DNA of 64,000 nucleotides from Verrucomicrobiota bacterium (GTDB taxonomy: Bacteria > Verrucomicrobiota > Verrucomicrobiia > Limisphaerales > AAA164-E04): contig CP170459.1 in assembly GCA_047947115.1 (NCBI GenBank), forward strand, positions 3,445,746-3,509,745, in the 5' to 3' direction. The translations under genes were made by a program, and so were the position numbers. Below, in pieces: positions 15,338-63,080 of this stretch. The notes under the pieces are model-generated. The model was given only the letters and a program-made list of their open reading frames with translations, was not told where the DNA came from and searched no databases. Within the stretch, counting starts at the first letter, position 1, and each line of letters starts with the position of its first letter.

Positions 15338-16945
15338 GTGAATCATCCACAACAAAGGGCATCGATCCCGGATAAATTGCAGGCTTCTGGAGGCTTGTCG
15401 GAAGGGGTGGCAGCAAAAGTCCACCAGGACACTGCCATTCCGGAGGCTGAAGTCTTCGGTGTCGGCAGTTTTTTTCATCTGTTGGCCGAACCGGATGTCA
15501 AAGTCCGCGTCTGCAACGGGCTCGCCTGTCGCATGGCGGGTGCCGATGATGTCTTGAAAGCTGCCGAATCCGCCGTACTTCCCGTGAAAGCATGTTCCTG
15601 TCTGGCTGCGTGTGATCAGGCTCCGGCTGCATTGCGTGATCGAAGTGTGCTTTACCGTATTTCCAAATCCCACATCGATGCGTGTGGTGGCGATTGGAAG
15701 GCGTTGGTCACGGACGCCACCAAAGCCGATCCTGAATTTCGGGGCATTGTTGGTCCGAGCGGTGCCGATCCGGATCAACGCGCCATCGATTTGTTGGGAG
15801 AAGCCGATTATACGGGACAGGCATTTGCCAAAGCCTGTGAGTCGGGTGCTGAGAAAGTCATCGAAGCCATTGACGGATCAGGACTTCAAGGACGTGGTGG
15901 AGCTGGATTTCCAGCCGGTTTCAAATGGAAGAGCGTGCGCGGGCAGGCTGAGCCGGTTCGGTATGTCGTGCTGAATGCCGATGAAGGTGAACCCGGAACA
16001 TTCAAGGACCGTGAGGTGTTATTACGGCGTCCGGACAAGGTCCTTGAAGGATTGGCCATCGCGGCCTGGACGGTCGGGGCCAAGGAGGTCTATTGCTATT
16101 TGCGGGGAGAGTTTGAAGGTCCCTGGAGAGTGTTAAGCGCGGCGGTGCAACGCGTTGAAGAAGCGGGATTGTTTCCTGGTATTCGATTTCATTTACACGC
16201 AGGTCAGGGAGCATATATTTGCGGGGAAGAGACGGCATTGCTGGAAGCGCTGGAAGGAAAACGTGGACTCCCCCGGCTCAAACCTCCTTTTCCCACCGAG
16301 CAGGGATTGTGGGGCAAGCCAACCCTGATCCACAACGTCGAAACCATCGCCTGTGTTCCGTCCATCATTCAGCGCGGTGGAGATTGGTTCAAGCAACTCG
16401 GGCGCACCGGCGCCGGCAGCAAACTTTACTGTGTGAGTGGTCACGTGAAACATCCCGGCGTGTATGAAATGCCGTTGGGAGTGACCTTGGACGAATTGGT
16501 GGAGGAGGCCGGAGGTTATGAAGGAACCTTGAAATCATTTTCCCCGGGCGGCGCCAGCTCAGGCTTTCTGCCTGCGTCTGAGCGGACACGGCCATTGGAT
16601 TTCAAGACCCTTTCGGAGGTCGGATCGATGCTGGGATCGGCGGGGGTGACCGTTTTGAATGACACCGTCAACATGGCCTGGGCTGCCCAATCACAGTTGA
16701 TCTTTTATGAAGCGGAGAGTTGCGGGCAGTGTGCGCCCTGCAGAATCGGAACCCGGTTTCTGCGCGAAAACCTGGACAAGCATCTGGCTCGTTCCAAAGA
16801 TGCACAGAGCCCCGATCTGCAGCCACTCGAACACGTGGCCGATGCCGCCTGGGAAATGAACGAAGGTTCCATTTGTGGTTTGGGGCAGATCGCCGCGTTG
16901 CCGCTCACCAGTGCCATGAAATATTTTCCTGAAGACTTTGAATGA
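15338..16945 (+). CDS. fdsB: NAD-dependent formate dehydrogenase beta subunit (fused NuoE-like 2Fe-2S + NuoF-like FMN/NAD/4Fe-4S)
   Basis: VRVCNGLACRMAG (NuoE-like), GLQGRGGAGFPAGFKWKSV (NuoF FMN site), ESCGQCAPCRIGT (4Fe-4S). It lies immediately upstream of the FDH alpha subunit. Start codon uncertain. Confidence 0.8.
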   Translation: MNHPQQRASIPDKLQASGGLSEGVAAKVHQDTAIPEAEVFGVGSFFHLLAEPDVKVRVCNGLACRMAGADDVLKAAESAVLPVKACSCLAACDQAPAALRDRSVLYRISKSHIDACGGDWKALVTDATKADPEFRGIVGPSGADPDQRAIDLLGEADYTGQAFAKACESGAEKVIEAIDGSGLQGRGGAGFPAGFKWKSVRGQAEPVRYVVLNADEGEPGTFKDREVLLRRPDKVLEGLAIAAWTVGAKEVYCYLRGEFEGPWRVLSAAVQRVEEAGLFPGIRFHLHAGQGAYICGEETALLEALEGKRGLPRLKPPFPTEQGLWGKPTLIHNVETIACVPSIIQRGGDWFKQLGRTGAGSKLYCVSGHVKHPGVYEMPLGVTLDELVEEAGGYEGTLKSFSPGGASSGFLPASERTRPLDFKTLSEVGSMLGSAGVTVLNDTVNMAWAAQSQLIFYEAESCGQCAPCRIGTRFLRENLDKHLARSKDAQSPDLQPLEHVADAAWEMNEGSICGLGQIAALPLTSAMKYFPEDFE

Positions 16946-35161: not shown

Positions 35162-38104
35162 ATGATGAGACATTTGAAGTTCAGCCCCATTACATTTTTA
35201 CCGATGGTTCGTTGGTTGCAGTTGATGTTTGCCCTGGTTGCAACGGATGTCCTGATGGGGGAAGAGGGGCGCGAGTCCGGCGTGGTCAATTCTGTGAAAG
35301 TGGAGTTTTTCAAGCATGAATCACCCGGAACGAACACTTGGCCTGAAGAAAAGGTGTTTGAATTCACAGCCCCTGCGATGGCTTTTGACCGCATTCCTCA
35401 GTGCTATAATGCAAACGGCATTCGAGACGATTGGCCAAATCCTTTATGGATCAAGGCATCCTGCAGGGTCGAAATGCCCGGTGGACGACACCGGTTTTTA
35501 CTTCGATCACGACGAGCCGCACGTCTATGGGTGGATGGCGCCGTGATTGCTTCCAATCCATTTCCGCCCAACATTCGTGATGGTCAGGATCCGGTGGAAA
35601 GGCCTTGCCTGGACCTCGGTCCGAATGTCCGGTTTCCCGCTCCAGGTGATCAGGAATCGCTCATTGAGTGGGAGATCGAGGCGGGTTTCCATTTGATTCA
35701 ACTTGAATTCTGTGTGGGCGGTTACGCCGGTAAAGAAAATTTGCGTCCGGAGACGGGGGAAACTCTGGTTGCGGTAAGTTACGAGGGTGATGCGACATTT
35801 TATTTGGTTGGCTCCGGTAATGGCATTGCGCTTACTGACGAGGCATGGCGGCGTTATCACGCGCAAAGAAATGCGACTCTAGACCGAATGGATCAGGACA
35901 GGCGCCGTCAATTGGCCTCCAGCCATCAACATTATTGGAATAATAGACATGATCATGCCCGGGCAGTTTGGGCCAAGATGACGGATCAGCCCGATTTCAA
36001 CTCCCAAAGTATCGACACTTTGGTTGTCAAAAAAATACAAGAAGCCAATCGCACCCTGGCCGACGCTGGTCATGCGCCTCTGTTCAGGGACGGAATACAA
36101 AATGTTCAAAAGCTTCTATCGGATCGTTGCCTTTCTTGTCATGGTTCCAAAGCAAAGGGCGGCTTGAAACTGGATACATTGTCGAGTGCCTTGGAAGGTG
36201 GCGATTCGGGCAGGCCGGCCTTGAAACCAGGCAGGCCGGATGAAAGCCTGATGCTGCAATTGATCCAATCCGGCGACCCCGATGAACGGATGCCCCCGAA
36301 AGGAAAGGCGTTGAGTGAGCAGGAGGTCGACTTGTTGGAAGATTGGATCAGCAAAGGAGCCTCATGGTCCCAATCCATCATCAGTGAGCACGTCACTCCC
36401 ATGCCTTTGACGGATGACTGGGAGTTTTTGCGGCGGGTAAGTCTGGATGTTCTGGGGATTCCTCCCAGTGAGGAAATGATTCGGCAATTTGAAGAGGACC
36501 GGTTGCCGGGCAAGCGATTGAGATGGATCGACCGCATGTTGAGGGACCCTCTCTGGGCGGATCATTGGGTTGGGTACTGGCAGGATGTGCTTGCCGAGAA
36601 CCCGACCATTGTCAATCCAACCCTCAACAACACCGGCCCCTTTCGTTGGTGGCTTTATGAATCTTTTCTCGATAACAAATCCATGGATCGCATGGTGAGT
36701 GAATTGGTGATGATGGAAGGTTCCGTTTTTGGTGGTGGCCCGGCTGGGTTTGAATTGGCCACACAAAATGATGTTCCCATGGCAGCCAAGGCCAATATTT
36801 TGACAACTGCTTTTCTGGGGGTGGATATGAAGTGTTCCCGTTGTCATGATGCGCCCTTTCATGATCATACCCAGAAGCAATTGTTCGGCATTGCGGGCAT
36901 GCTGGCAGGGAAACCCATTACTGTCCCTGCCAGCAGCAGTGTTCCATTGGACCAACCCCATCAAACCAAACGGAATGCATTGATCCGACTGTCCGTCAAG
37001 CCAGGCGATGAGGTGTCTCCGGCTTGGGAGTGGGATCAGTGGACGCCGAAAGAGGGTGTGGAATCTTGGCTGAACAATCCCAAAGACACCCGCGAACAAC
37101 TGGCGTTTTTACTGACATCACCTCAGAACACGCGGTTCCCTCGCGTGATCGTGAACCGCCTTTGGAAACGTCTGATGGGGAGTGGAATTGTGGAGCCGGT
37201 TGACGACTGGGAACATGCGGATCCAACTCACCCCGCATTGCTGGATTATCTGGCACATTACTTTGTCCGCAACGATTACGATCTGAAGGCGGTGACCCGC
37301 TTGATTCTCAATTCCGACACCTACCAGCGCCGAACATCCCGGGAACAGGATGTGATCCGCATGTTCGGTGCTCCAGGGCCCAGGCAAATGACCGCGGAAC
37401 AAATCGTGGACACCTTGTTTGCCGTTACTGGAAAGCCAATGAATGTGGAACCCTTGACGGTTGATATAGGAGGAGGGCGATCCTGGGCCAATGCCGTTCA
37501 CCTTGGCAATCCAAGCCGCGCTTGGATGTTTGGAGGTTTGGCCAACAATCGGGACCGCCCCAGCCTGACTTTACCGCGTGTTCAAGCGGTTACTGATGTT
37601 CTGTCCGCATTCGGGTGGAGGGCATCCAGGCAGGAGCCTCTCACGGATCGAAAAACTCCACTGACTCCCCTGCAACCGGCCATTCTCAACAATGGAACGA
37701 TGATGACCTGGTTGACAAGATTGTCTGATGATCATCCGTTGACGGAAATTGCGATGCAGGTCAAGTCACCCGGCGAATTGGTCGAACGATTATACCAGCG
37801 CATTCTGAGCCGTAAGCCGGATTTGATTGAAAAGCGTGAGGGGGTGTCTGCCATTCAGGAAGGGTTTTACGATCGAATCCTGTCGCGCACCATCTCCAGG
37901 ACGGCCAGACCATCCAGACCGCCCTTGTATGTAACCTGGGCCAATCATCTTCAACCCGAAGCCACGCACATTCAGTTGGAAGCCACACTCAAAGCAAAAC
38001 AAGGAGATCCTCCCTCGCAACGTCTTGATCCTTCCTGGCGTGAGCGCATGGAGGATCTGGTGTGGAGTTTGTTGAATCTGCCTGAAACCATTTATTATCC
38101 ATGA
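35162..38104 (+). CDS. PSD1 / DUF1549-DUF1553 protein with planctomycete-type cytochrome c (CxxCH) motif
   Basis: 980 aa. CLSCHGSKAKGGLKLD heme-motif segment, DUF1549-like FLRRVSLDVLGIPPSEEMIRQF, DUF1553-like KCSRCHDAPFHDHTQKQ. The gene ends 1 nt before the DUF1501 partner. Confidence 0.8.
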   Translation: MMRHLKFSPITFLPMVRWLQLMFALVATDVLMGEEGRESGVVNSVKVEFFKHESPGTNTWPEEKVFEFTAPAMAFDRIPQCYNANGIRDDWPNPLWIKASCRVEMPGGRHRFLLRSRRAARLWVDGAVIASNPFPPNIRDGQDPVERPCLDLGPNVRFPAPGDQESLIEWEIEAGFHLIQLEFCVGGYAGKENLRPETGETLVAVSYEGDATFYLVGSGNGIALTDEAWRRYHAQRNATLDRMDQDRRRQLASSHQHYWNNRHDHARAVWAKMTDQPDFNSQSIDTLVVKKIQEANRTLADAGHAPLFRDGIQNVQKLLSDRCLSCHGSKAKGGLKLDTLSSALEGGDSGRPALKPGRPDESLMLQLIQSGDPDERMPPKGKALSEQEVDLLEDWISKGASWSQSIISEHVTPMPLTDDWEFLRRVSLDVLGIPPSEEMIRQFEEDRLPGKRLRWIDRMLRDPLWADHWVGYWQDVLAENPTIVNPTLNNTGPFRWWLYESFLDNKSMDRMVSELVMMEGSVFGGGPAGFELATQNDVPMAAKANILTTAFLGVDMKCSRCHDAPFHDHTQKQLFGIAGMLAGKPITVPASSSVPLDQPHQTKRNALIRLSVKPGDEVSPAWEWDQWTPKEGVESWLNNPKDTREQLAFLLTSPQNTRFPRVIVNRLWKRLMGSGIVEPVDDWEHADPTHPALLDYLAHYFVRNDYDLKAVTRLILNSDTYQRRTSREQDVIRMFGAPGPRQMTAEQIVDTLFAVTGKPMNVEPLTVDIGGGRSWANAVHLGNPSRAWMFGGLANNRDRPSLTLPRVQAVTDVLSAFGWRASRQEPLTDRKTPLTPLQPAILNNGTMMTWLTRLSDDHPLTEIAMQVKSPGELVERLYQRILSRKPDLIEKREGVSAIQEGFYDRILSRTISRTARPSRPPLYVTWANHLQPEATHIQLEATLKAKQGDPPSQRLDPSWRERMEDLVWSLLNLPETIYYP

Positions 38105-38105
38105 C

Positions 38106-39404
38106 ATGAAGATACCCCCGCTACCTAAGACTCTGACGCGACGTGCGTTTCTTTCCACCTTGGGAGCTGCCGGTGCGCATGTCACGATGCGTTCTGAAGT
38201 GGTTCCGGCGGGTGTGACCGCCTTTCCAAAGGGCAAGGCCAAAAGCTGCATCATGATTTGGTTGGGAGGTGGGATGAGTCAGATTGATACATTCGACCCG
38301 AAAGTGGTGGGTGAATGGACAGAGAAACGTCCCGGATCCCAATACCCTTCCATTCCGACGAGTGTGCCGGGTGTCCGGGTTTGTGAGCATTTATCCGGCT
38401 GCGCGGGTTTGATGGATCGCATGACGATTGTCCGCAGCGTGCATCATGAAGTGATTGACGAACATGGTGCCGCAGTGATTCGGGTGCACTCGGGGCGTCC
38501 CACCAGTGGAACGATTCAATATCCATCCATCGGATCCGTCATTGCGCATGAGCTGGGAAAAGCATCGGAAGATTTGCCTGCTTACGTGGTGGTTGGTTAT
38601 CCCAATATCGCACGAGATCCCGGTTTTTTGGGAGCTGAACACGGTTACCTCTATGTGACCGACACCGCCGCCGGCCCAACCGGCTTGGCAAGGCCTTCGC
38701 ATGTAAGTGATCAACGCCAGGCAAATCGTTCCGGATTGCTGGAAGGATTACGCAGAGATCGGGTCAAAGGTTATCCATGGCAGGACTACGACGGCATGGT
38801 CACGCGCAGCTTGCGATTGGCGGGTCCCAACTTCATGAACGTTTTTGATCTGGACCGTGAATCGGCCGACATGCGCCAACGTTATGGCGGTGAATTCGGT
38901 CAACGATGTTTGTTGGCACGACGATTGGTTGAACGCGGCGTTCGTTTCGTTGAAGTGTCCCACAACCTGAACTTTGTGAATGGAACCGGATGGGACACGC
39001 ATTTCGAAGGGCAACAACAGCAACACCTGCTGATTCGGGAATTGGATGGCGCGTTGTCTGCCCTGGTTTCGGATCTTGAGCAAAAAGGGAAGTTGGATGA
39101 CACACTTGTTGTCATTGGAACAGAATTTGGTCGTCCGGCCCATTTTGATTCCAAGGGAGGTAGAGGACATCATGGTCGTTGTTTCAGTCTGGTGCTGGCA
39201 GGTGGCAGTTTGAAACATCAGGGCGCATATGGTGTGACCGATGAGCTGGGAATGAAAATTGTCGATTCCCCTGTATCAATCCCCGACTTTCATGCAACCG
39301 TTTATGCTGCATTAGGAATCAATCCTGACAAGGCCTTGTATGACGGAGATCGTCCGGTCCCCATCACCGATGGAGGGATACCCATCGGTGCATTGTTCGC
39401 GTAA
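38106..39404 (+). CDS. DUF1501 (sulfatase-fold) protein with Tat-like signal
   Basis: LTRRAFLSTLGAAGA twin-arginine-like N-terminus, ...GWDTHF..., ...FGRPAHFDSKGGRGHH... Canonical partner of PSD1 proteins in PVC genomes. Confidence 0.8.
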   Translation: MKIPPLPKTLTRRAFLSTLGAAGAHVTMRSEVVPAGVTAFPKGKAKSCIMIWLGGGMSQIDTFDPKVVGEWTEKRPGSQYPSIPTSVPGVRVCEHLSGCAGLMDRMTIVRSVHHEVIDEHGAAVIRVHSGRPTSGTIQYPSIGSVIAHELGKASEDLPAYVVVGYPNIARDPGFLGAEHGYLYVTDTAAGPTGLARPSHVSDQRQANRSGLLEGLRRDRVKGYPWQDYDGMVTRSLRLAGPNFMNVFDLDRESADMRQRYGGEFGQRCLLARRLVERGVRFVEVSHNLNFVNGTGWDTHFEGQQQQHLLIRELDGALSALVSDLEQKGKLDDTLVVIGTEFGRPAHFDSKGGRGHHGRCFSLVLAGGSLKHQGAYGVTDELGMKIVDSPVSIPDFHATVYAALGINPDKALYDGDRPVPITDGGIPIGALFA

Positions 39405-39534: not shown

Positions 39535-41340
39535 ATGAATTCCCGACTCAACTTGGCGGTTATTTGTACATTATTGTCGCGATCCCTGCAACAGTTGGCG
39601 CTGCTTTGTTTTTCTCTGTTGATTGCGTGGAGCCCCTTCCTCAGCTCGGCCCAAGAGCACGTGTTGCATTCCTTCGAATCGATCCGCCTTACGGACACCT
39701 ATTTTTCGGAAGGAGCCAATGCTGGCGATCTGAATCAGGACGGACATCCTGACGTGGTGTATGGTCCATATTGGATTGAAGGTCCCGATTTTGAAAAAAA
39801 GCATGCCATATACGAAGCGGTTCCCCAACCGATGGAAGCTTATGCGGATCATTTTTTTGCATGGGTTTATGATTTCAATCGGGATGGGTGGGATGACGTG
39901 TTTGTGGTCGGATTTCCGGGCAAGCCAGCCTATGTTTATGAAAATCCAGGCAAACTTAAGCAGGATGAATACTGGCCCAAACATGAAGTTTTTGATTCAG
40001 TGGGGAATGAATCTCCCCATTTTACTCAAATCGTAGGAGATGAAGTGCCCGAGTTGATTTGCACTCATCGCGGGATTTTTGGATACGCAACATTTGATTC
40101 GAGCAAACCCTTTGAAACATGGACGTTTCATCCCATTTCAGGTCGTATCACTGCCATGCAGTTTGGGCACGGTCTGGGGGTGGGGGATGTGAACGGGGAT
40201 GGTTTGTTGGACGTGATTTACCCGGGTGGCTGGTTTCAGCAACCTTCATCGAATGACGGAGAGGGCCTTTGGACCCAACATAAAGCTTCCTTCTCAAACT
40301 CATACGGCGGGGCCGAAATGTATGCTTACGATGTCGATGGTGACGGGGACAATGACATCATCACCAGTCAGGCGGCTCACGATTTCGGGCTTGCCTGGTA
40401 TGAGCAGATAAGAGGTCCGGGTGAAGAAGTGATTTTTGAGGAACGATTGATCATGGGGTATCGCTCGGACCAGAATAAGTACGGGGTGGTGTTCAGCGAG
40501 CCGCACTCGGTAAATCTGGTGGATATGGATGGGGACGGTCTCAAGGATATTGTAACCGGAAAAACCTATTACTCACATCATGAAAAGAGTCCGCTCTGGG
40601 ATGCCGGAGCGGTTGCTTATTGGTTTCGTTTGCAGCGTACTCCTGAGGGGGTTGATTGGATACCCTACCTTGCAGCGAGCGATACGGGGATAGGAAGGCA
40701 GGTGTCGGTGTCGGATGTCAATAAGGATGGATTGCCCGATATCGTTGTGGGAGGTATGAAGGGAAGCCATGTTTTGTTACACCGTGTACGGAAGGTGGCT
40801 CCCGAAATCTGGCAGAAAGCGCAGCCGGAAGTTTATCAGTCGAAAGGCTACGTGCCGGCAGGAAGGAAGGAAGTGCCGGTCAATGCCCGGACCGGTTTGG
40901 CAGAGCACGCTTTAGAAGCGGAGTCCATTAGGATTGCCGGGCTTACCGCAGGCAAGGTTGTCATCCAGGATATGTCCAGCTTTCATGCCGACCGATGGAG
41001 CGGAGGTAAGCAGCTTTTTTGGTCCGGAGCCGAACCTAGGGCCAGGTTGCATCTGGAATTTGAGTTGGATAAGGCGGGGAATTACCAAATTGGAGCCAGC
41101 TTCACCACGGCGCGTGATTATTGTATCATCAATGTGTTGCTTGATAACAGGGCATTGACCGAACCGATTGATCTGTTCGGGTATCCCGATGTGGAAACCA
41201 CCGGGTTGCTCGAATTCGGTAGGCAGTCTCTGGAGGCCGGCAAACACCGGTTGACTTTGGAAACCATCGGCATCAATCCTGCCGCGACCAAATACTACAT
41301 GGTGGGAATGGATTTTTTAAGTTTGAAGCCAGTGGATTGA
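39535..41340 (+). CDS. Secreted FG-GAP/VCBS repeat protein with C-terminal beta-sandwich-like domain
   Basis: Repeated Ca-binding-like motifs DLNQDGHPDV, DFNRDGWDDV, DVNGDGLLDV, DVDGDGDNDI, DMDGDGLKDI, DVNKDGLPDI; signal peptide. Confidence 0.75.
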   Translation: MNSRLNLAVICTLLSRSLQQLALLCFSLLIAWSPFLSSAQEHVLHSFESIRLTDTYFSEGANAGDLNQDGHPDVVYGPYWIEGPDFEKKHAIYEAVPQPMEAYADHFFAWVYDFNRDGWDDVFVVGFPGKPAYVYENPGKLKQDEYWPKHEVFDSVGNESPHFTQIVGDEVPELICTHRGIFGYATFDSSKPFETWTFHPISGRITAMQFGHGLGVGDVNGDGLLDVIYPGGWFQQPSSNDGEGLWTQHKASFSNSYGGAEMYAYDVDGDGDNDIITSQAAHDFGLAWYEQIRGPGEEVIFEERLIMGYRSDQNKYGVVFSEPHSVNLVDMDGDGLKDIVTGKTYYSHHEKSPLWDAGAVAYWFRLQRTPEGVDWIPYLAASDTGIGRQVSVSDVNKDGLPDIVVGGMKGSHVLLHRVRKVAPEIWQKAQPEVYQSKGYVPAGRKEVPVNARTGLAEHALEAESIRIAGLTAGKVVIQDMSSFHADRWSGGKQLFWSGAEPRARLHLEFELDKAGNYQIGASFTTARDYCIINVLLDNRALTEPIDLFGYPDVETTGLLEFGRQSLEAGKHRLTLETIGINPAATKYYMVGMDFLSLKPVD

Positions 41341-49522: not shown

Positions 49523-51061
49523 ATGAAAAAACGGTTCTTTTGGGTGTTTCTGATGTGTTGGTGTTTTGTCGTGAAGTCTTTCGCAACGGATAAGAACTTC
49601 TACGGCATTCGAGCGGTGGATGCTCAAACCAAACGTGGAGTTCCATTGATAGCATTAAAGACCGTGCACCATGTTTCTTATTGGACGGATAGCTTGGGGT
49701 ATGTGGTGGTGGACGAACCCGGGTGGTATGATCGGGAGGTTTACTTTTATGTGAGCGGTGATGGATATGAGGTGGCCACGGATGGCTTCGGATATCAAGG
49801 AGTGCGCCTGAAACCCAGGGCTGGTCAAATCGATGAAATCGTCGTCCGACGCACTCAATTGGCTGAGAGGATGTATCGCATCACGGGTGCGGACAAATAT
49901 CGAAATGCGCAGTTGCTGGGGATTGATTTGCCTTATGAGAGTTCATGGCCGGATGGAAATGTGGTCGGCCAGGATTCCGCCCAGGCAAAGGTTTATAATG
50001 ATCGCATATATTGGTTCTGGGGAGATACGTCGATTTTTCGATATCCTTTGGGCAATTTTAGAACTGCAGGGGCTTATTCCCTGAAATCCGGGCAAGGTGG
50101 TCTTTCACCGGCTCAAGGGATTTTGTTGAACTATTTCGTTGACGAAAACGGAACGAACGCCGGGATGTGTCCGATGCCTCCGAATGGAAATCTGATTTGG
50201 ATCGATGGATTACTGGTGGTGAAAGATGCAAATGGTAAAGAAAGAATGGTGGCGCACTATTCCAAGCGAAAATCATTGTCGGAACAAATGGAACATGGCC
50301 TGGTTGTTTTTGATGATACGACCCAGCGATTCGGGTTGTTGAAAACATTCGAACAGGAAAATACTTGGCAACATCCCCGAGGGCATCCGATACGTGTTGC
50401 TTTTCCCGAGGGTGATTTCTTTGTTTTCGGAGATGTATACTATCACATCCGTGTGCCGGCTGATTGGGAAGCTGTTCAGGATCCAAACCAATATGAAAGT
50501 TTCGGACCGGACGATAGTGGTTCGTTGCATCTTCAATGGCGAAAAGGCAAACCGCCTCTGACGGTGAAACAAGAGCGAGCAGGCATTGATTCAGCTTCCA
50601 TGCCTGAGGGCGACGCCTGGTTGCAGCCGAAGGATGTGATGACAGGGATGCCCATCGTTCTCCACCGTGGCTCCGTTCGGTGGAACAAGCATCGTCAAAT
50701 GTATATCATGATTGCCAATCAGATCGGTGGTGACTCCATGTTGGGTGAGGTTTGGTATGGAGAAGCCTCACGCCCGGAAGGTCCATGGCAAAAGGTAATC
50801 AAGGTGGCAAGTCACGCAGACTATTCCTACTACAATCCAGTGCACCGTGAATTCTTCGATCAGGAAGGCGGACGGATGATTTACTTTGAAGGCACCTACG
50901 TGACGACCTTCTCAGGAAATGAGCATCCCGTGCCACGTTACGATTATAATCAATTGATGTATCGCCTGGATCTGGATCATCCGGGTTTGGCCGATGTGCG
51001 ACAGGCCTATGACGAGCGAGGCCAGAATGGTCGGGGTGTCACTTGCTCTCCGGCTGAATGA
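49523..51061 (+). CDS. Secreted hypothetical protein
   Basis: 512 aa ORF with clear signal peptide MKKRFFWVFLMCWCFVVKSFA. No catalytic motif recognised (WFWGDTS segment noted). Its 3' end overlaps the convergent gene by 23 bp. Confidence 0.55.
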   Translation: MKKRFFWVFLMCWCFVVKSFATDKNFYGIRAVDAQTKRGVPLIALKTVHHVSYWTDSLGYVVVDEPGWYDREVYFYVSGDGYEVATDGFGYQGVRLKPRAGQIDEIVVRRTQLAERMYRITGADKYRNAQLLGIDLPYESSWPDGNVVGQDSAQAKVYNDRIYWFWGDTSIFRYPLGNFRTAGAYSLKSGQGGLSPAQGILLNYFVDENGTNAGMCPMPPNGNLIWIDGLLVVKDANGKERMVAHYSKRKSLSEQMEHGLVVFDDTTQRFGLLKTFEQENTWQHPRGHPIRVAFPEGDFFVFGDVYYHIRVPADWEAVQDPNQYESFGPDDSGSLHLQWRKGKPPLTVKQERAGIDSASMPEGDAWLQPKDVMTGMPIVLHRGSVRWNKHRQMYIMIANQIGGDSMLGEVWYGEASRPEGPWQKVIKVASHADYSYYNPVHREFFDQEGGRMIYFEGTYVTTFSGNEHPVPRYDYNQLMYRLDLDHPGLADVRQAYDERGQNGRGVTCSPAE

Positions 51062-54000
51062 TCTGAAGCGGGTTGGTGAAGCGATCGTTTGTGATTTGGG
51101 AAAGTGTTCCGTCCGGCCATCGTACGTCAACTTGCTGTAATTTGTCTGGTGACGTGGCAAACAGAGTCGGGGAAGATTGGCTGAGGTAGCCGTTTCCGGC
51201 ATAGATTTCGCGAACTTCTGTTTTTCCGGAAGTGTGCCGGATGGTGATGCGTGATCCAATGCCATGCTGATTTCCCGGTCTGCCCAGGAGCCGGATGCCG
51301 AGTGGTTGCGATCCGTAAACGGCCTGGTTGATGAATGCCAACAAACGATCGTTGTTCTGGGTGGCGACCAGATCAGGCCAACCATCCGCATTCAAATCCG
51401 TAATCGCAAGACCCTTTCCATCGCCACCGACTTGAAAGCCGGTTTGTTCGAAATCCTGGATTTGAAAAACTCCATTGGAATCAAATACGCCAGAAAAACC
51501 AATGCCGCCGCGCCATAAACCGGTTTCGGGTTCCCGGGTGTAGAAGTTTTGAACGCCATAGTAGTCGAGTTGACCGTTTCCATCAAAATCGGACACCACG
51601 GTTCCATAGCCAGGCGAGGCTTGAATCAACCGAGGAAAGGCTTTCCAATCAAACGAACCCTTGCCGCCATTGATGAGGATGCCCGACTCGAAATGATTGG
51701 CCAAATACTGCCGGGCTGAATTGAGTTGGTTCACCGGGTAGATCTCATTGAGTTTTGACGATGCAAATTGACGAAAAGTCGGAAACTTCTCTCTCAACCA
51801 GGGCATGACCCCTCCTGCAAAACTCAAGCCACGAACAGGAAGGTATCCTTGGTCTCCTTTGTGAACCTCGATCAGGAAAGGGCGATTGGTTTGATCCATC
51901 GCACCATAAAGCAGGATGGCGGGATTGTTTTGACTGGCTGTTTGATACTTCGTGTTCAAACCGACGTTCATGACCACATAATCCATGTCGCCGTCTTTGT
52001 CCACATCCGCGCCGTTGATGACGTTCCACCAACCCAGGCGCCCGGAAAGCTTTCGGTTTTCGGTTTCGTCCGCCAGTTTGCCGTTGTGGTTTGCAAAGCA
52101 TTTCACTGGTCCCCATTCAAGTGTGAGCATCAGGTCGAGGGTTCCGTTGGAATCCGTGTCCGTCCAAAGCGCCGAGGTGACCATTCCGACGGACCGAAGG
52201 CCGGGGGCAATTGTGTCCGTGACATCTACGAAGCGTCCACCTTCGTTCCTCAGTAACCGGCTTTCCGGAGTGGTCGGGTAATGGGCTGGAACGACGCGTC
52301 CTCCGATGAACAGATCCAGATCTCCATCGGCATCAAAATCTGCAGCGACTGCGGGGCCGCTCGAGATTGGTTTTTGGGGGAGCACCTCTTCAGGAGCCAC
52401 GGTAAATTTGCCTTTCCCGTCATTCAGGTAAAGCCGATCATTCAAGACGGGATCTCCCGGGTTGCATTCCACACCGCCACTGGAGACGAACAAGTCAAGA
52501 TCTCCGTCCAGATCTACATCCAGCCACAAGGGCGCCATGTCTTCGTGGCGTTGGTGGGAGTTGAAAATGATTTGATTATCAGTGTCTTTTTCAAAATGTC
52601 CCGGGCTTATCTGGATAAAAAGAGCTCCGGGCTGTCCGGATGCACCCGCCAGATAGACGTCTTCGTCTCCGTCACCGTCCACATCTCCCCAGGCCATGCC
52701 TCCCCCGAGTTGCGAATGTTTGGACGGTAATAAAGGCTGACGTTGCCGGTCTTCAAAAATCGTCTCCTGATGTTTGAAATCGAGACCGATCTGCCGGCTC
52801 ATTTCGATGAAGCGTTTTCGAGGCCTTTCTGTCGTTGGAGCGGCTTGTCGGGTGGTGGTTTCTTCAATGGTGTAACGCAGGTTTGTTTGCAGGTTGGTGA
52901 AAACCTGCTGAACGCCGCTGGGCCAGTTGACGGTCAATTTGCTGATAGTCTTCTCATTTCCCAGTCCAAAATGCAGACTTGGTTCGTTGCTGGCCAGGAA
53001 ACCTGTCATGGGATTGAGCTGTCGAATCTGAGTGCCCAGCTTTTCACTCTCCACATGAACAACGGCCCCCAGGCCATACCGATTACTTGGAGTTCCTTTC
53101 AGTCGAATGGTGATACGGTTTCCGGAATGGCTGTTGTTTCTGTAAATGCCGACGGGTTCATTGAGGTCTGCGGTCACCAGGTCCAGGTCGCCGTCCCCAT
53201 CGAGGTCTCCATAGGCTGCCCCATAACTCATGCCCATATGATCCAGACCCCATGCTTTGCTGGTATCTTTAAAGATCAGGTCTCCATGGTTTTTAAAAGC
53301 GAAATTCTGTTCCCTGAGAGGCGGTGTGTCTTTCCAAAGGTCCCATTCGGTTTTTCCTATCAGCATGGAAAGTGATATGGGCATGTCGGCGTCGGTTGAC
53401 ATGCGGGATGCGCCGTTGGTGGTGAACACGTCAACCCGGCCATCGTTGTCAAAATCCGCCAACTTGATGGCCCAGGTCCAGTCGGTCGCTGCCAGGTTTG
53501 CCATGAATGCGACTTCCATGAACCGATCGGTTCCAGTATTCAGGTAAAGCGTGTTGTGCGATGTTTGACGTGGCCAGACATTTTCCAGAAACCACCGGCG
53601 ATCGCCCATTTCGCCATTGCTGATGTGCCATTTGTAATGTGTGGTGGCCATCATATCCGCACTCATGAAATCAAGCCGCCCGTCGTTGTTCAGATCGGCA
53701 CAGTCAGCACCCATGGAAGACCAGGTCGTGTAAGGCATCACATCGGCAATGACATCTGTGAAAGTCCCGTCGCCATTGTTGCGGTAAAGATGATCCGGAT
53801 CCGTGAAATCATTGCCTACATAGAGGTCGATTTTGCCATCCGAGTTGTAATCCCACCATGTAGCCGAAAAACCGTGACCGTTTTCTGTGATGCCTGCCTG
53901 GACGCTGACATCGGTGAACGTGCCGTCCCCGTTATTGCGAAACAAACGGTCAGGGCGTCCGCAGGTATCCGCAGTGTAGCTGTTGGGACCGGTCTGGCGC

Positions 54001-54776
54001 AGGTGATAATACTTTTCGTGCTCCGCTAGGATGTAGGGGCGGCCGTTTTTAAATCCAACGGGCGGTTTTTGGGGGCGGCCGCCGGGACGAACATACCGAT
54101 AGGTCAACACAAAGACATCCAGATCACCGTCATTGTCGTAATCGGCAAAAGTCGGAAAGATACTGGCATCTACCATGTCCAGACCGCAGGCAGCGGCAGA
54201 TTCGGTGAATGGTTTCCCTGCGCCCTGATTGATGAAAAGTTGATTGGGGGCGTCATAATTGCAGACATAGATATCCAGATCTCCATCGTTATCGATGTCT
54301 GCCATGGCCGTTCCCGCTCCCCATCGATCCTCACCCGATGTGTTGGATGCTTCGGTCATGTCCTTGAACTTAAAAGGTGTCTCCTGAATGTAGAGTCGAT
54401 TGGATTCAGGTGCGTTGACAAGGTAAAGGTCGGGTTTTCCATCACCATTGACATCGCCGATTGCGATTCCTCCGCATACGGAGCCTGCGTAATTCAGGTA
54501 GCTCTTGGGATGGTCCAGGATCATGTTGTTGGAGAAATGCACGCCGGTGTCATCTGGCAGTAATCGTTCGAACAATGTGGCGGCAGAGATTTTTTGCGAC
54601 CGGGGTGACAGGGGGGCTTGATGGATTGTGCCATTTGACATGTCCGCAGATTGCATGGAACTCACTGCAAGACAGCATCCAAACAGAACCCCTGCGACGA
54701 AGAACCAGTCAACCAAGCAAGAACGTTCCCCGGTGGGGAGGGGCGTGAGATGCTGCCTGGTCAAATGAAGATTCAT
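51039..54776 (-). CDS. CRTAC1-family FG-GAP/VCBS repeat protein with two ASPIC/UnbV modules
   Basis: Track ORF 51039..54905 trimmed to ATG 54776 (MNLHLTRQH...) because the first 43 codons derive from the tandem-repeat edge. Many motifs GDVNGDGKPDL, ADIDNDGDLDI, ADYDNDGDLDV...; ASPIC/UnbV-like GNRITIRLKGTPSNRYGLGAVVHV and LGIRLLGRPGNQHGIGSRITI. Confidence 0.8.
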   Translation of the reverse strand: MNLHLTRQHLTPLPTGERSCLVDWFFVAGVLFGCCLAVSSMQSADMSNGTIHQAPLSPRSQKISAATLFERLLPDDTGVHFSNNMILDHPKSYLNYAGSVCGGIAIGDVNGDGKPDLYLVNAPESNRLYIQETPFKFKDMTEASNTSGEDRWGAGTAMADIDNDGDLDIYVCNYDAPNQLFINQGAGKPFTESAAACGLDMVDASIFPTFADYDNDGDLDVFVLTYRYVRPGGRPQKPPVGFKNGRPYILAEHEKYYHLRQTGPNSYTADTCGRPDRLFRNNGDGTFTDVSVQAGITENGHGFSATWWDYNSDGKIDLYVGNDFTDPDHLYRNNGDGTFTDVIADVMPYTTWSSMGADCADLNNDGRLDFMSADMMATTHYKWHISNGEMGDRRWFLENVWPRQTSHNTLYLNTGTDRFMEVAFMANLAATDWTWAIKLADFDNDGRVDVFTTNGASRMSTDADMPISLSMLIGKTEWDLWKDTPPLREQNFAFKNHGDLIFKDTSKAWGLDHMGMSYGAAYGDLDGDGDLDLVTADLNEPVGIYRNNSHSGNRITIRLKGTPSNRYGLGAVVHVESEKLGTQIRQLNPMTGFLASNEPSLHFGLGNEKTISKLTVNWPSGVQQVFTNLQTNLRYTIEETTTRQAAPTTERPRKRFIEMSRQIGLDFKHQETIFEDRQRQPLLPSKHSQLGGGMAWGDVDGDGDEDVYLAGASGQPGALFIQISPGHFEKDTDNQIIFNSHQRHEDMAPLWLDVDLDGDLDLFVSSGGVECNPGDPVLNDRLYLNDGKGKFTVAPEEVLPQKPISSGPAVAADFDADGDLDLFIGGRVVPAHYPTTPESRLLRNEGGRFVDVTDTIAPGLRSVGMVTSALWTDTDSNGTLDLMLTLEWGPVKCFANHNGKLADETENRKLSGRLGWWNVINGADVDKDGDMDYVVMNVGLNTKYQTASQNNPAILLYGAMDQTNRPFLIEVHKGDQGYLPVRGLSFAGGVMPWLREKFPTFRQFASSKLNEIYPVNQLNSARQYLANHFESGILINGGKGSFDWKAFPRLIQASPGYGTVVSDFDGNGQLDYYGVQNFYTREPETGLWRGGIGFSGVFDSNGVFQIQDFEQTGFQVGGDGKGLAITDLNADGWPDLVATQNNDRLLAFINQAVYGSQPLGIRLLGRPGNQHGIGSRITIRHTSGKTEVREIYAGNGYLSQSSPTLFATSPDKLQQVDVRWPDGTLSQITNDRFTNPLQIIQPESK

Positions 54777-54841
54777 GATCTGGTCCGCGTATTTTATGGA
54801 GAGCATCAAGTGCAACAAGGATTTTCCGGTCAAGTCCAAGA

Positions 54842-56115
54842 AATTGGAGGGTCCAGCGCCTGCTTGAACCCACTTCGGACCTTGTGGCGTTTGAGGGCCG
54901 GTCATTGTTCCGTGGAAAAGCTGTTGGCGATCGAATCGCTGTGGTCTGCCCGCGTTCCGGTTGCTTTGCTCAGGGGGGAGGTAAAGGGGTAAGTATGGGA
55001 ACGGGGTGGCACCCGTCCCTCCGTTGTAAACAATGGAGGGTCAAGCGCCTGCTTGAACCCACTTCGGACCTTGTGGCGTTTGAGGGCCGGTCATTGTTCG
55101 GTGGAAAAGCTGTTGACGATCGAATCGCTGTGGTCTGCCCGCGTTCCGGTTGCTCTGCTCAGGCGGGTGGTAAAGGGGTAAGTATGGGAACGGGGTGGCA
55201 CCCGTCCCTCCGTTGTAAACAATGGAGGGGCAAGCGCCTGCTTGAACCCACTTCGGACCTTGTGGCGTTTGAGGGCCGGTCATTGTTCGGTGGAAAAGCT
55301 GTTGACGATCGAATCGCTGTGGTCTGCCCGCATTCCGGTTGCTTTGCTCAGGGGGGAGGTAAAGGGGTAAGTATGGGAACGGGGTGGCACCCGTCCCTCC
55401 GTTGTAAACAATGGAGGGGCAAGCGCCTGCTTGAACCCACTTCGGACCTTGGGGCGTTTGAGGGCCGGTCATTGTTCAGTGGAAAAGCTGTTGGCGATCG
55501 AATCGCTGTGTGCTGCCAGCGTTCCGGTTGCTTTGCTCAGGGGGGAGATAAAGGGGTAAGTATGGGAACGGGGTGGCACCCGTCCCTCCGTTGTAAACAA
55601 TGGAGGGGCAAGCGCCTGCTTGAACCCACTTCGGACCTTGTGGCGTTTGAGGGCCGGTCATTGTTCCGTGGAAAAGCTGTTGGCGATCGAATCGCTGTGG
55701 TCTGCCCGCGTTCCGGTTGCTTTGCTTAGGGGGGCGTAAAGGGGCAAGTATGGGAACGGGGTGGCACCCGTCCCTCCGTTGTAAACAATGGTGGGTCAAG
55801 CGCCTGCTTGAACCCACTTCGGACCTTGGGGCGTTTGAGGGCCGGTCATTGTTCTGAGGAAAAGCTGTTGGCGATCGAATCGCTGTGGTCTGCCCGCGTT
55901 CCGGTTGCTTTGCTCAGGGGGGTGGTAAAGGGGTAAGTATGGGAACGGGGTGGCACCCGTCCCGCCGTTGTAAACAATGGAGGGGCAAGCGCCTGCTTGA
56001 ACCCACTTCGGACCTTGGGGCATTTGAGGGCCGGTCATTGTTCGGTGGAAAAGCTGTTGCCGATCGAATCGCCGTGGTCTGCCCGCATTCCGCTTGGCGT
56101 TGCTCAGGCGAGGGA
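54842..56115. repeat. Tandem array, ~6.7 copies of a 189 bp hairpin-dense unit (non-coding minisatellite / candidate structured-RNA array)
   Basis: The motif GCGCCTGCTTGAACCC recurs at 54856, 55045, 55234, 55423, 55612, 55800 and 55989 (periods 189,189,189,189,188,189). By eye the copies differ at only a handful of positions each; the last copy decays after ~125 bp. Each unit holds GCGAT-CGA-ATCGC, GGGA(A)CGGG-GUGGCA-CCCGUCCC and CCCTCCGTTG-TAAA-CAATGGAGGG hairpins. Confidence 0.95.
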
Positions 56116-59333: not shown

Positions 59334-62300
59334 TCAGGGCTGCATTGCAGGCAGTGTGAATGCCCTTTTCTGGCGATATCCATTCACTCGTTGCTGGATC
59401 TGTGTGGTTTGCTGGCTTCCGGATGGAAGATGTTGCAATGCTCTTTGGGCTGTTCGTATGGCCAGATCAAATTGACCATCGGCTGCATAGGCCGCGGCGA
59501 GGACATCCAATGTTTCCGGCGCCTGGTTTCCGGTTTGCTCGCATGCCTTCCTGGCAAGCTGAATGGCTTGAGAGGGGCTCAACAGTTCCGGCTCCGGAGC
59601 AGTTGCCAACAGCCATCCCAAAGCAGCGGTGGCTCTCAAATGTTCCGCATCCATCTCCAGAACCCGGCGATAGTCGGCCATCGCAGATTTGAACCGTCCC
59701 GAGGACTGGAAAAACATGGCTCTCGCGTATGGGTGTTCGGTGTCGTGTGGCGCGAGTCTGATGGCTTCGTTGAATAATTCTTCCGCCAAGGAAACATCAG
59801 AGGTCGAGGCTTCCATTGCCGCATTTCTGCAGAGAAGGGATGCCCTTTCTTTTTCGCCTGGATGGATCAGCTCTACCTTGGCCAGGTAGTCGGCCAAATC
59901 GGAAAAGCGTTTCTTTTCTCCCAGGATGGTTGCCAGAGCCAAATGGTCGGGAGGATAGGGTTCCACATACCATCTGCCTGCATAGGGAACCGCGTGCTGC
60001 CGGTCATGACCTTGGCGGAAAAGTGTTTGGGTGTCTGTGGTCAGGGTGTCCAATGTCGGGCTGCCTTCGTAAAATGCCAGCAATCTGTTTTCTTCATCGA
60101 GCAGGAGGGAGCAGGGGATGGACCAGGTCCATTGTCTGCCAAGGATGGTTTCACGCGCGGCATCTGCAATTTCCATCAATGAAGAGGTTGCCAACCCGCT
60201 GTTCAGGGTCCAGTTTTGGCGGCGCCACATGCGCTGCACGGTGCTCATTCGCTCAGGCGACGGTTTGTTCAGGTCATCCAGGTTCAGCGGTAAAATATCC
60301 AATCCCTGCTTGGACAGGTTTTCTTGATGCCGGTTGAGCTGGGTGAGTTCCTGGACGCATGGCAGACACCAGGTCGCCCACAGGACGATCAACTTCCTTC
60401 GGCCAGTGGCGGTTAACTGTTTGTCAGTCCCTTCTTTATCCACGTAAGAAATCGTTGGCAAGGGCAAGGGACTGTGAGGAATCATTCTACTGACTTTTGG
60501 TGCGGGCAAATCCGGGGCTTTGGACGGTATCAGGTTCTGCCGGATTCGGGGCGAGCCCAGCGAGGTGGGTTCAGCCTCGTTTTGAGTCAGTTGCAGGAGC
60601 GTTGCGTTTGCCGGAGGTGTCCAGGATTGGTTCCGACCATTGGGCCAGCGCACTTTGATGGTTGATACGGAGCCGTCCGTCCCCAGGCCGAAATGCAGGC
60701 TCTGGCTGGACTGTGCCAGGTAACCTTCACCGGCCCTCAAAGTGCGCACCTGACGTTGCCCGGCAGCATCAACAACCTCGACTCTTGATCCGATTCCATG
60801 CCGGTTGCCATTGAGACTTTGCAATTGGATGCGGAGGGATTTTGCTGCCGAATGATTGTCGTTTCGAAGAAATCTAAGCCGAGGTGCAGTGCGCTGAGTG
60901 ATCCAGAGATCCAGATCTCCGTCATGATCCCAATCGACCAGAGCCATGCCCCGGCCGTCCGCAGGGGAATCAAATCCGGTCAAGGCAGACACCCCCGCAA
61001 ATCTTCCATCCCGGGTGTTCAGAAAGGCGACGTTGCGTTCGTTTCCGCTCCAGTTATGCCCGCTTTCGACCAGATCGGCGGTGGCTTCCCATGCGGCGAG
61101 GTAGCCGTCGGCCGAGTTTTCGGTCTGGTTGTTGGTGGGGGCTTCCTCCGGTGATTGCGACGTGACCCGCCGCCAGAAGAAACTTCACAAATCCCCGGTA
61201 TCGGGCGTACCGGTGACCATTCCATTTGCCACAATCAGGTCCTCCCACCCATCATTATTGAAGTCGACAAAATTTGAACTCCATGCCCAGCGTCCGAGAG
61301 TGACACCCGCTTCCTCGCTGACATCCAGAAAGGTTCCGTCCCCCTGGTTTGAAAACAGGCTGTTTCCTCTGGCGTGTCGTTGAAACCCGGATGCATCCTG
61401 TCCGTCGCGGTAACGGCGCTGAAATGCGATGCGATTGCCCGCCGAGGAGAACATGTTTCCCACATAGAGGTCCATCCAGCCGTCGCGGTTGAAATCCCCC
61501 CAACTCACCGACATGCCCGCTGACAAATCTTCCACGCCTGCTTGTGCGGCGATGTCGGTGAAGTGACCTCCGTCATTGCGATACAAATTGTTTCTTCCAA
61601 AATCATTGGCAACGTACAAATCAGGATCCCCGTCATTATCAAAATCCTCCCAAGAAGCGGCGTAGCTGAATCGTTGGTTGTTCTGATTCAATCCTGTTTC
61701 GGTCGTGACATCGTCAAACTGCCATCGCCGGTTTCGAAGCAGGAAGTTCTGCACGCCATTGTTTGCGTCGTGGTAGGGCATGGGGCGTCCCAGACCTAAC
61801 CGGTCTCCGGATCGATCATAGTAGCCGCACAAAAAAACGTCCAGCAGACCGTCCACGTCATAATCGATGGCTGAGATTGAGCGTATGATGGAGTTCGAAG
61901 AGAATTGAGTGCGTCGTTCGAAATGTCCCGTTCCATCATTGGCAAAGAACAGGACATGGCGACCGGATGCCATGACCAGATCCAGATCTAGATCATTGTC
62001 CAGATCCACCAGCAGCGCGCTGGCGGTGGGTTCCAGATAATCCAGCCCTGCTTCCGCTGACGCATCCAGGACGGTACCATCTTTGTTTTGCATCAGCAGT
62101 CGATTGGGCAGGCCTCCAGGTTCGCAGACGTAAAGATCTTCCAATCCATCCCCGTTGACATCGCCGACGGCCAGTCCGTGGGGGCCGGTGACGTCCAGCG
62201 TGAAACGCCAGTCCAAATGCTTTCGCCAATGATCGATGCCTCGGAGCAGTGGATCCTCCGAATCAGGTGTCCACCCCATGACCGATGCCGTGCAGTCGGC

Positions 62301-63080
62301 AAACCATGGCGTGTTCCGGTGCGGGGACGTGACTTCCTCATAATCCAGCACTCTGAGTTCGGTTAAAAGCGGTAGGCCTCCCGGTTTTTTCGCCTGCACC
62401 CAGGTACATTCCCAGGTTGCATGCTGCTGCAACGTCACACCGTTTCCGTGACCGTGAGATTCAACGATCACCACCGTCGTGCTGGTAACCTGGTCCACCG
62501 CCACTCGAACGGTTTTGAAATGCATGTCAAAATGCAGGAAAGGAGAATTGTCCGATACGTTTATGGGAGATGTCAACTGGATCAACGCCTGTGTGAATCC
62601 CGATTGGTTTTGGAAAGCTTTCGGGGCATCGGATGGTTGATTTCTCCGATGCCGCCAAACTTTGAGCGTGCCATCGTCGAAGCTGAGGGCTTGAGGAGAG
62701 GGGCGCAAGGCATCTCCGCTGAAACTGTCGTTGATCATATCGGCCAGGTGCTCCTGCAGGGCCCGGTTGCCTGCGTGCATGGCCTTGTTCATCTGTTTGA
62801 ACTGGATGCCTGTTGCGTCGTTGATGACTTCGGTCACCCAGCCATCTGCTCTGGGGTCGAGGTGCTCCATTTCCCGCGCCACTTCGGGTGCGACCTTCGA
62901 TTCCGTCAATCCCAGAATTGGAATCGAAGTTTCGCTGACAGGTGACTCCGCTGCCTTTGCACGAAGGTTGCCAGATCCAATCAACAGGCAGCAAACGAGG
63001 GCAAATAGTAACCTGCCCCAGGGCATCCGTGTTTCAGCATGACGGTTCTGATGGAGGATACTTCTATGGGATTTGTTCAT
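59334..63080 (-). CDS. FG-GAP/VCBS (CRTAC1-like) + ASPIC/UnbV + TlpA-like thioredoxin + TPR protein with one in-frame UGA (61187..61185): candidate selenoprotein (alternative: recent pseudogene)
   Basis: Track ORFs 61185..63080 and 59334..60992 share one frame. The 64 codons between them are open and encode a further FG-GAP repeat. The junction reads ...GMVTGTPDTGDL-U-SFFWRRVTSQSPEE...NERNVAFLNTRDGRFAGVSALTGFD... Downstream domains: UnbV-like (LRIQLQSLNGNRHGIGSRVEV), thioredoxin-like WATWCLPCVQEL, TPR helices. Signal peptide at 63080. Confidence 0.65.
61141..61183 (-). promoter_or_regulatory. Candidate SECIS element for the UGA at 61187..61185
   Basis: RNA: UGA-A-[GUUUCUUCUGG]-[CGGCG-GGUCA-CGUCG]-CAAUCA-[CCGGAGGAAGC]. 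An 11 bp lower helix (3 G-U) and a 5 bp upper helix with a GGUCA apical loop starting 17 nt after the UGA. Folded by eye. Confidence 0.5.

Follow-up and report, generated by a model that had tools for sequence, protein, structure and literature searches.

A 64-kb stretch of a Verrucomicrobiota metagenome-assembled genome (MAG; contig CP170459.1), referred to here as the window, carries on its minus strand a long gene whose reading frame is interrupted once, at codon 632, by UGA. The predicted protein combines an FG-GAP β-propeller with UnbV_ASPIC, thioredoxin-like and TPR domains. We consider it highly probable that the gene encodes an exported selenoenzyme of ~1,250 residues in which UGA632 is decoded as selenocysteine (Sec) by means of a Sec insertion sequence (SECIS) hairpin, with a CxxC motif in cis that recycles the Sec residue. 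Sec decoding at UGA632 is the part of this proposal that comparative sequence evidence supports well. Sec recoding in bacteria is itself a well-known kind of system.

Translation of the minus strand across the gene yields 1,249 codons with one internal stop, preceded by GMVTGTPDTGDL / ANGMVTGTPDTGDL and followed by SFFWRRVTSQSPEE. The program-made list of open reading frames (ORFs) divides the interval into 61185..63080 (631 aa, ATG start) and 59334..60992 (552 aa, GTG start), and the NCBI entries for the two halves are XOV69731.1 ('FG-GAP repeat domain-containing protein') and XOV69730.1 ('ASPIC/UnbV domain-containing protein'). The 192 nt that separate the TGA from the second called ORF (60993..61184) are open in the same frame. 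Pfam detects FG-GAP repeats on either side of the TGA and UnbV_ASPIC, Redoxin and TPR domains only downstream of it, which indicates that one domain architecture is cut by the TGA. The interval 59334..63080 is one gene, annotated by NCBI as two. A first-pass annotation of the window had proposed that a single UGA joins the two called ORFs into a frame of ~1,248 codons and that the 192 nt after the TGA stay open; the translation and the ORF list bear out both points.

Conservation of the UGA and residues at the Sec column

A first protein search used as its query a 351-aa segment that includes the stop position. Among the best 120 matches, ~60 (65-99% identical) were ~600-aa proteins that end exactly at ...DL. 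Other matches were ~580-aa UnbV/Redoxin/TPR proteins that start at varied Met or Val codons just downstream. A search with the C-terminal half returned no full-length proteins among the best 120 matches listed. In a library reduced to clusters at 50% identity, the best 150 representatives include 93 that stop at the Sec site and only 6 that read through it.

A scan of GTDB genomes matched 597 places, from which the best 80 loci were kept (84 sites counting tandem copies). The identical codon is an in-frame stop in 77 of these best 80 loci, and this stop is always TGA. Counted by site, TGA is found at 80 of the 84 homologous positions in the 80 GTDB species genomes, TAA or TAG at none; the remaining sites have the sense codons TCG, TAC and GCC in three loci and TGC in one distant paralogue. 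Hosts of the 80 loci comprise 33 Planctomycetota, 32 Verrucomicrobiota, ~13 Acidobacteriota and 2 of unclear affiliation. Occurrence of the same codon at 80 of 84 homologous sites puts the position of the TGA beyond chance. The first-pass annotation had suggested that the aligned column be inspected for Cys or an in-frame TGA. Homologues with the TGA exist, and the proposed Sec form extends to hundreds of sequences.

Codon-position entropy across the site is 0.39/0.39/0.94. Because variation falls mainly on third positions, including those of the seven S-F-F/Y-W-R-Q-V codons ahead of any usable start, the latter are translated in this frame. Reassignment of UGA throughout the genome is ruled out, as family genes and their neighbors terminate with TGA, TAG and TAA; the mixture of all three at the true stops of family genes indicates that the standard genetic code applies.

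Bases that flank the UGA are also biased. Of 77 family members, 75 have A directly after it (window position 61184; UGA-A, with AGT or AGC as the Ser codon) and 62 have TTG as the Leu codon before it, which may reflect a codon-context preference. The Sec-form gene is duplicated in tandem at three loci (L027, L033 and L034), and one MAG, HKST-UBA30, contains up to four Sec-form copies (L005, L025, L048 and L057). The only genuine cluster among recurrent neighbors across the 80 loci is the family itself; other clusters consist of spurious high-GC ORFs.

Homologues that read through the site have a variety of residues at the Sec column. In 54 distant read-through proteins (41-50% identical), some of which NCBI names 'CRTAC1 family protein', the column holds Asn (29), Ser (17), Ala (3), Met (2), Asp (2) or Gln (1), and Cys in none. 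Among six full-length proteins that are closer, two have S and one each has Q, E and A; the sixth, a homologue designated P0281, has Cys (DLCSFFWRQV). Besides Cys, the residues seen across read-through homologues are Asn, Ser, Ala, Gln, Met, Asp, Glu and Tyr. The DNA that encodes P0281 (locus L086) has TGC, which is one nucleotide from TGA, followed by an intact hairpin, GCGCCA[GGUCG]UGGCGC. This single Cys form rests on one 3.8-kb ENA contig (ERZ27274783:k133_1489322). A scan of JGI metagenomes with the pattern D-L-C-S-F-[FY]-W-R-Q-V gave only four copies of one unrelated sequence, and a protein search centered on the Cys form produced 37 candidates, none of them a Cys relative. The first-pass annotation had named as a refutation an aligned residue that is never Cys or Sec, and this is not what is seen: Sec is placed there in hundreds of sequences and Cys (TGC) on one contig. 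Read-through homologues almost never carry Cys, and for this reason the classic Sec/Cys argument is weak here.

Two further observations concern these relatives. A distant paralogue that lies beside a Sec-form gene (L059:1878-2237) has Cys at the column and a second Cys five residues on (TKDYCTRFWCHDVYY, C-x4-C), with no hairpin. In long ENA contigs of the ERZ250394xx/ERZ250395xx series (L081-L085), Asn-type CRTAC1-like genes are split into overlapping calls that look like frameshift errors, and one should therefore not trust the recorded lengths of many read-through proteins in databases.

A SECIS-type hairpin and Sec use by the host

The first-pass annotation had described a helix that starts 1 nt after the UGA and is capped by a GGUCA loop, with GGUC at 17 nt, and this element was confirmed (see table). 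Its minimum free energy (MFE) refers to a 60-nt fold. The extended lower helix is specific to the window sequence and is not conserved in other loci; the 21-nt core hairpin has a mean of -9.8 kcal/mol across the family. In the published model of bacterial SECIS (bSECIS) elements, the loop has 3-9 nt, the upper stem 4-16 bp, the UGA-loop spacing is 16-37 nt, G occupies the first two loop positions and the MFE is at or below -7.5 kcal/mol (PMC13188914, Fig. 2 legend). The window hairpin, with its 5-nt GGUCA loop, 6-bp stem, 17-nt spacing and MFE of -20.6 kcal/mol, lies within every one of these limits.

Covariation was analyzed in 77 distinct sequences (alignment A4). Cells of the 6-bp stem are paired in 98.9% of cases, compared with 12-67% when the 3' partner is slid as a control. 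Compensatory changes are found in three of the six stem pairs. Pair 4 occurs as GU (31), AU (30), GC (9) and CG (6), and pair 6 as AU (67) and GC (10). A single CG-to-AU switch in pair 2 is achieved by two synonymous changes, one in Arg (CGG to AGG) and one in Pro (CCG to CCT). The loop reads GGUCG at 66 of 80 TGA sites, and G is present at loop position 1 or 2 in all 80.

Codon choice within the element differs between TGA sites and their sense-codon relatives. All six pairs form at 75 of 80 TGA sites versus 1 of 8 related sense-codon homologues, which encode the same WRQ/RV peptide. Synonymous variation is frozen within the stem, where Ser+9 is TCG 61 times out of 62; by contrast, Ser+11, which lies beyond it, is spread over four codons. 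For Val+7, 68 of 77 TGA forms use GTC and 7 of 8 related sense forms use GTG; because of this GTG, the GGUC loop is lost in those seven. The hairpin is kept by compensation in TGA forms, and the full stem is lost in 7 of 8 sense-codon relatives; L085 (Met) and L086 (Cys) are the ones that keep it. L085 (ENA ERZ25039464 contig_78820; site DVMSFFWRQV) has ATG at the Sec codon and a perfect 6-bp hairpin, GCGUCA[AGUCG]UGGCGC, which may be a fossil SECIS left behind by loss of Sec.

The host uses Sec: fdhA, a separate gene in the window, has a Sec codon and a hairpin. Positions 1-126 of the TIGR01591 model match upstream of the fdhA UGA and positions 130-672 downstream, within the motif ...AAT-U-HAPTVAGL, and the UGA occupies the catalytic position. 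The fdhA hairpin, GUGGCC[GGUCU]GGUCAC, has its loop 18 nt past the UGA and is of the same design as that of the propeller gene. The likeness claimed in the first-pass annotation (GGUCU loop, 18 nt against 17 nt) is therefore real. E. coli fdhF and the window fdhA share with the propeller gene an in-frame UGA, a stem-loop within the ORF and an apical loop that starts with GGUC. The fdh genes differ in that they belong to an unrelated protein family, and the propeller Sec does not coordinate a metal at a molybdopterin site. A further difference is that the propeller family conserves only the 17-nt core hairpin and not the lower helix. A nuoE/F-fusion gene (15338..16945, plus strand) lies directly upstream of fdhA. 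Kim et al. 2016 (PMC4807772) described the fdhA-nuoEF arrangement as one that hardly occurs outside Planctomycete P1 and Plesiocystis pacifica; the Verrucomicrobiota MAG to which the window belongs has it as well.

Domain architecture and the CxxC motif

The N-terminus of the protein looks like a signal peptide, read by eye from the sequence, and the protein is probably exported; the corresponding residues 1-27 of a homologue model (see below) are of low confidence. The closest solved fold is murine CRTAC1 (9ETN), in which an FG-GAP β-propeller is followed by UnbV_ASPIC, as in the window protein (phmmer E = 1e-18; Foldseek E = 6e-22, TM 0.73). Colinearity with CRTAC1 does not extend across the whole propeller: residues 62-193 of the 351-aa segment, Sec included, are unaligned in 9etn_A. 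CRTAC1 thus lacks a counterpart of ~130 residues around Sec, which comprise an extra blade and a helical insert, and the thioredoxin-like and TPR domains of the window protein are additional.

The thioredoxin-like domain matches the NCBIfam models TlpA, ResA and DsbE at 27-50 bits, which is below their equivalog cutoffs of 123-230. Foldseek matches the domain to ResA and TlpA structures, and the TPR region finds matches too. The WCLPC redox domain that the first-pass annotation had placed in the same polypeptide is indeed there. Together with TlpA, ResA and CcmG (1JFU, 4TXV and 2F9S) it shares the thioredoxin fold and a WCxPC at the N-terminus of a helix. Those proteins are small and membrane-anchored, whereas the window counterpart is a domain embedded within a polypeptide of 1,248 residues. 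Catalogued thioredoxin-fold selenoproteins include a Redoxin family with UxxC and a UGC-containing TlpA family (PMC13188914, Table 1), which likewise have a TlpA/Redoxin-type domain within a selenoprotein. In these families Sec replaces an active-site Cys; in contrast, the window protein keeps both Cys residues, and its Sec lies 273 residues upstream in another domain.

When 55 joined members are aligned with MAFFT, just two cysteines are invariant, residues 905 and 908 of the CxxC. All TGA forms have one TlpA/ResA-type WCxPC ~273 residues past Sec, and exactly one CxxC, mostly CxPC, is present in each of 115 database C-terminal halves. The motif occurs in all 55 joined Sec forms and in the single Cys form, but in only 5 of 16 non-Sec forms that have a visible thioredoxin motif; it is kept in none of eight Asn/Ser-type relatives with a visible motif.

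An AlphaFold 2 (AF2) model was built for the Cys-form homologue P0281 (mean predicted local confidence, pLDDT, 89.2; predicted template-modeling score, pTM, 0.90). It relied on alignment A8, the columns of which were checked one by one; alignments A2, A5 and A6 were dropped because they misplaced N- or C-terminal halves, and A7 looked well-behaved. In the model, the Sec-equivalent Cys644 is predicted to open a helix (residues 644-652), and WCEPC (C917/C920) to lie at the N-terminus of helix 918-929. The predicted position of Cys644 resembles that of the CxxC in that both sit at the start of a helix.

A further cysteine position was noticed in homologues. At residues 684-685, ~52 residues after Sec, the window protein has Val-Ala (~61026..61031; ERNVAFLN). 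In 75% of Sec-form homologues Cys, often Cys-Cys, occupies this position (ERNC(C)FLN), where it could act as a facultative resolving cysteine.

Table. Features of the proposed selenoprotein gene and of fdhA in the window
Feature	Position	Strand	Details
Proposed complete selenoprotein gene	59334..63080	-	1,248 codons; Sec = residue 632; true stop TGA at 59334..59336
Putative N-terminal signal peptide region (MNKSHR...MPWGRLLFALVCCLLIGSGNLRAKAA)	62949..63080	-	Hydrophobic core, then small-residue site; read by eye
FG-GAP β-propeller, interrupted by UGA, with helical insert starting U-SFFWRRV	60903..62213	-	Pfam FG-GAP_3 (E = 6e-38), FG-GAP
In-frame UGA, proposed Sec codon (residue 632)	61185..61187	-	TGA at identical codon in homologues
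Extended lower helix around core hairpin	61141..61183	-	Begins 1 nt after UGA; MFE -20.6 kcal/mol, z = -2.1
SECIS-type core hairpin GCGGCG[GGUCA]CGUCGC	61157..61173	-	6-bp stem, 5-nt loop; GGUC 17 nt after UGA
UnbV_ASPIC domain	60606..60797	-	Pfam PF07593, E = 2.4e-18; aligns to CRTAC1 9etn_A residues 373-485
TlpA/ResA-like thioredoxin-fold domain	60081..60461	-	Pfam Redoxin, 32.8 bits vs cutoff 26.6
CLPC active-site motif (WCLPC), residues 905-908	60357..60368	-	Invariant cysteines
C-terminal TPR repeats	59421..59729	-	Pfam TPR_1, TPR_2, TPR_14, others; PDB TPR matches
fdhA selenoprotein gene (separate gene, supporting evidence)	16963..19695	+	UGA at 18061..18063; hairpin 18076..18092

The window contains two other FG-GAP proteins. 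One (51039..54905, minus strand; 1,288 aa) has two UnbV_ASPIC domains, no in-frame stop and no thioredoxin domain; the other (39535..41340, plus strand; 601 aa) is an FG-GAP repeat protein of another type that has no relationship to the Sec family. Neither has a counterpart of the SFFWR segment, and both are uninformative about the Sec column. Elsewhere in the window (35162..39404, plus strand), a PSCyt1/PSCyt2/PSD1 (DUF1549/DUF1553) protein is followed by a DUF1501 protein. DUF1549/DUF1553 and DUF1501 proteins form a classic gene pair of the Planctomycetota-Verrucomicrobiota-Chlamydiota (PVC) group, the function of which is unknown.

Alternative explanations, prior records and significance

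Several observations weigh against decoding of UGA632 as Sec in a relay with the CxxC. Cys homologues, the usual hallmark of a Sec family, are very rare in the sequences compared, and read-through relatives have Asn, Ser and similar residues at the column, which are not redox-active. The hairpin overlies the conserved codons of WRQVVS, so its conservation is partly at the level of protein. A search of the whole window with Rfam at gathering thresholds gave no matching family, and a search of 61090..61200 at E <= 10 gave nothing except one irrelevant match to a long non-coding RNA. The 64-kb window contains none of selA, selB, selC and selD, and it yielded no tRNA. Five non-Sec forms keep the CxxC, indicating that Sec and CxxC are not strictly linked, and the correlation between the two is confounded by phylogeny.

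Some of these points fit a programmed read-through that does not involve selenium, in which the hairpin would help a near-cognate tRNA, for Trp, Cys, Arg or Gly, to place an ordinary residue at position 632. Such a mechanism would account for the near absence of Cys forms, for the tolerance of the column in read-through relatives to the eight non-Cys residues listed above, and for a window with no sel genes. However, the hairpin is of SelB-type design, with a GGUC loop at a spacing of 17 nt, and looks like the hairpin of fdhA in this genome. Moreover, the stop is always UGA and has long been kept in three phyla though a sense codon would be simpler, and the one Cys (TGC) substitution retains an intact hairpin. 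We regard read-through of this kind as very improbable.

Separate translation of two genes appears very improbable. Termination at the UGA would be followed by a restart, perhaps at a GTG that lies in frame 8 codons on, and the two polypeptides would assemble into one propeller. Gene callers do place GTG or ATG starts shortly past the stop in many members, and NCBI annotates two proteins in this genome. However, the S-F-F/Y-W-R-Q-V segment between the stop and these starts is conserved as protein, varies synonymously and matches the SFFWRQV of read-through proteins; such conservation of the intervening codons is the reason to reject reinitiation at the in-frame GTG. The usual GTG sits in the 3' arm of the hairpin, and the called starts are scattered. 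The first-pass annotation had judged two independent genes unlikely, a view strengthened by orthologues in which the in-frame stop is TGA and never TAA or TAG, with SFFWRQV conserved ahead of usable starts.

A nonsense mutation (pseudogene) or a sequencing error in this genome, which the first-pass annotation had named as a possible refutation and for which the stop codon itself is the sole argument, has a negligible probability given the same TGA at 80 of 84 sites in independent assemblies from three phyla, an intact frame and purifying selection on either side of the TGA.

Sec decoding at UGA632 thus remains the favored explanation, and it suggests a model for the protein. SelB carrying Sec-tRNA(Sec) would bind the minimal hairpin (6 bp, GGUCN loop) 17 nt past the UGA at 61185..61187. 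The inserted Sec would be residue 632, which opens a short helix (U-SFFWRQVV) in the helical insert of the propeller, and would serve as the redox-active nucleophile of an extracytoplasmic enzyme. After turnover has left Sec as a selenenylsulfide or selenenic acid, the built-in CxxC domain may regenerate the selenolate, and could itself be reduced by the DsbD/CcdA pathway, as are other TlpA-like proteins. The TPR repeats may bind partners or substrates. In this model we infer the Sec-CxxC relay, the substrate, export and the actual incorporation of selenium.

The first-pass annotation had suggested an undescribed selenoprotein family, which requires qualification. Kim et al. 2016 list four candidate rows in their S9 Table, each a split gene pair with an ASPIC/UnbV plus FG-GAP architecture; the aligned residue in the closest read-through match is G, and bSECISearch was positive for 3 of 4 (PMC4807772). 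These candidates are the same family as judged by description, not by direct sequence comparison (PMC4807772). That study did not discuss them further and gives no family extent, covariation, CxxC link or structure (PMC4807772). The family is not among the 119 prokaryotic selenoprotein families of a 2026 catalogue (PMC13188914), goes unmentioned in the main texts of the BSepDB, deep-Sep and GOS papers, of the 2021 marine paper and of the 2022 review, and has no model in NCBIfam release 20. Searches of main texts in the literature that paired selenoprotein or selenocysteine with FG-GAP, ASPIC, UnbV, CRTAC1 or VCBS yielded nothing relevant. The gene, which on the comparative evidence very probably encodes a Sec-containing protein, belongs to a large family that was glimpsed once and never catalogued or characterized.

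The size of the family and the manner in which it is annotated have consequences for databases. At least 93 clusters (50% identity) end at the Sec codon, and the TGA form is found in at least 77 GTDB species of three phyla, often in multiple copies. Gene callers, including the NCBI pipeline, split every member, which results in thousands of truncated entries named 'FG-GAP/VCBS repeat', 'ASPIC/UnbV' or 'TPR'. The family is also atypical: its members are very large and apparently exported, the proposed Sec lies in a propeller insert rather than in a thioredoxin-fold motif, Cys counterparts are nearly absent, and the protein always carries an intact CxxC domain in cis. Searches that depend on homology to Cys forms would miss families of this type, so more of them may exist. 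Through the proposed Sec, the functionally obscure bacterial CRTAC1/ASPIC family also gains a testable catalytic hypothesis.

It is tempting to go further, although we do so only tentatively and think it doubtful that every element will hold, and to propose that Sec is irreplaceable by Cys in this family. This idea stems from the essential absence of Cys orthologues while hundreds of lineages keep the UGA. It would imply an as yet undescribed, selenium-specific extracytoplasmic chemistry on a scaffold that has never been tied to redox catalysis, served by a built-in TlpA-like recycling domain. Because many genomes have two to four copies or more, the family may be one of the most abundant selenoprotein families of the PVC group and Acidobacteriota, and leaving it out would bias censuses of selenoproteomes.

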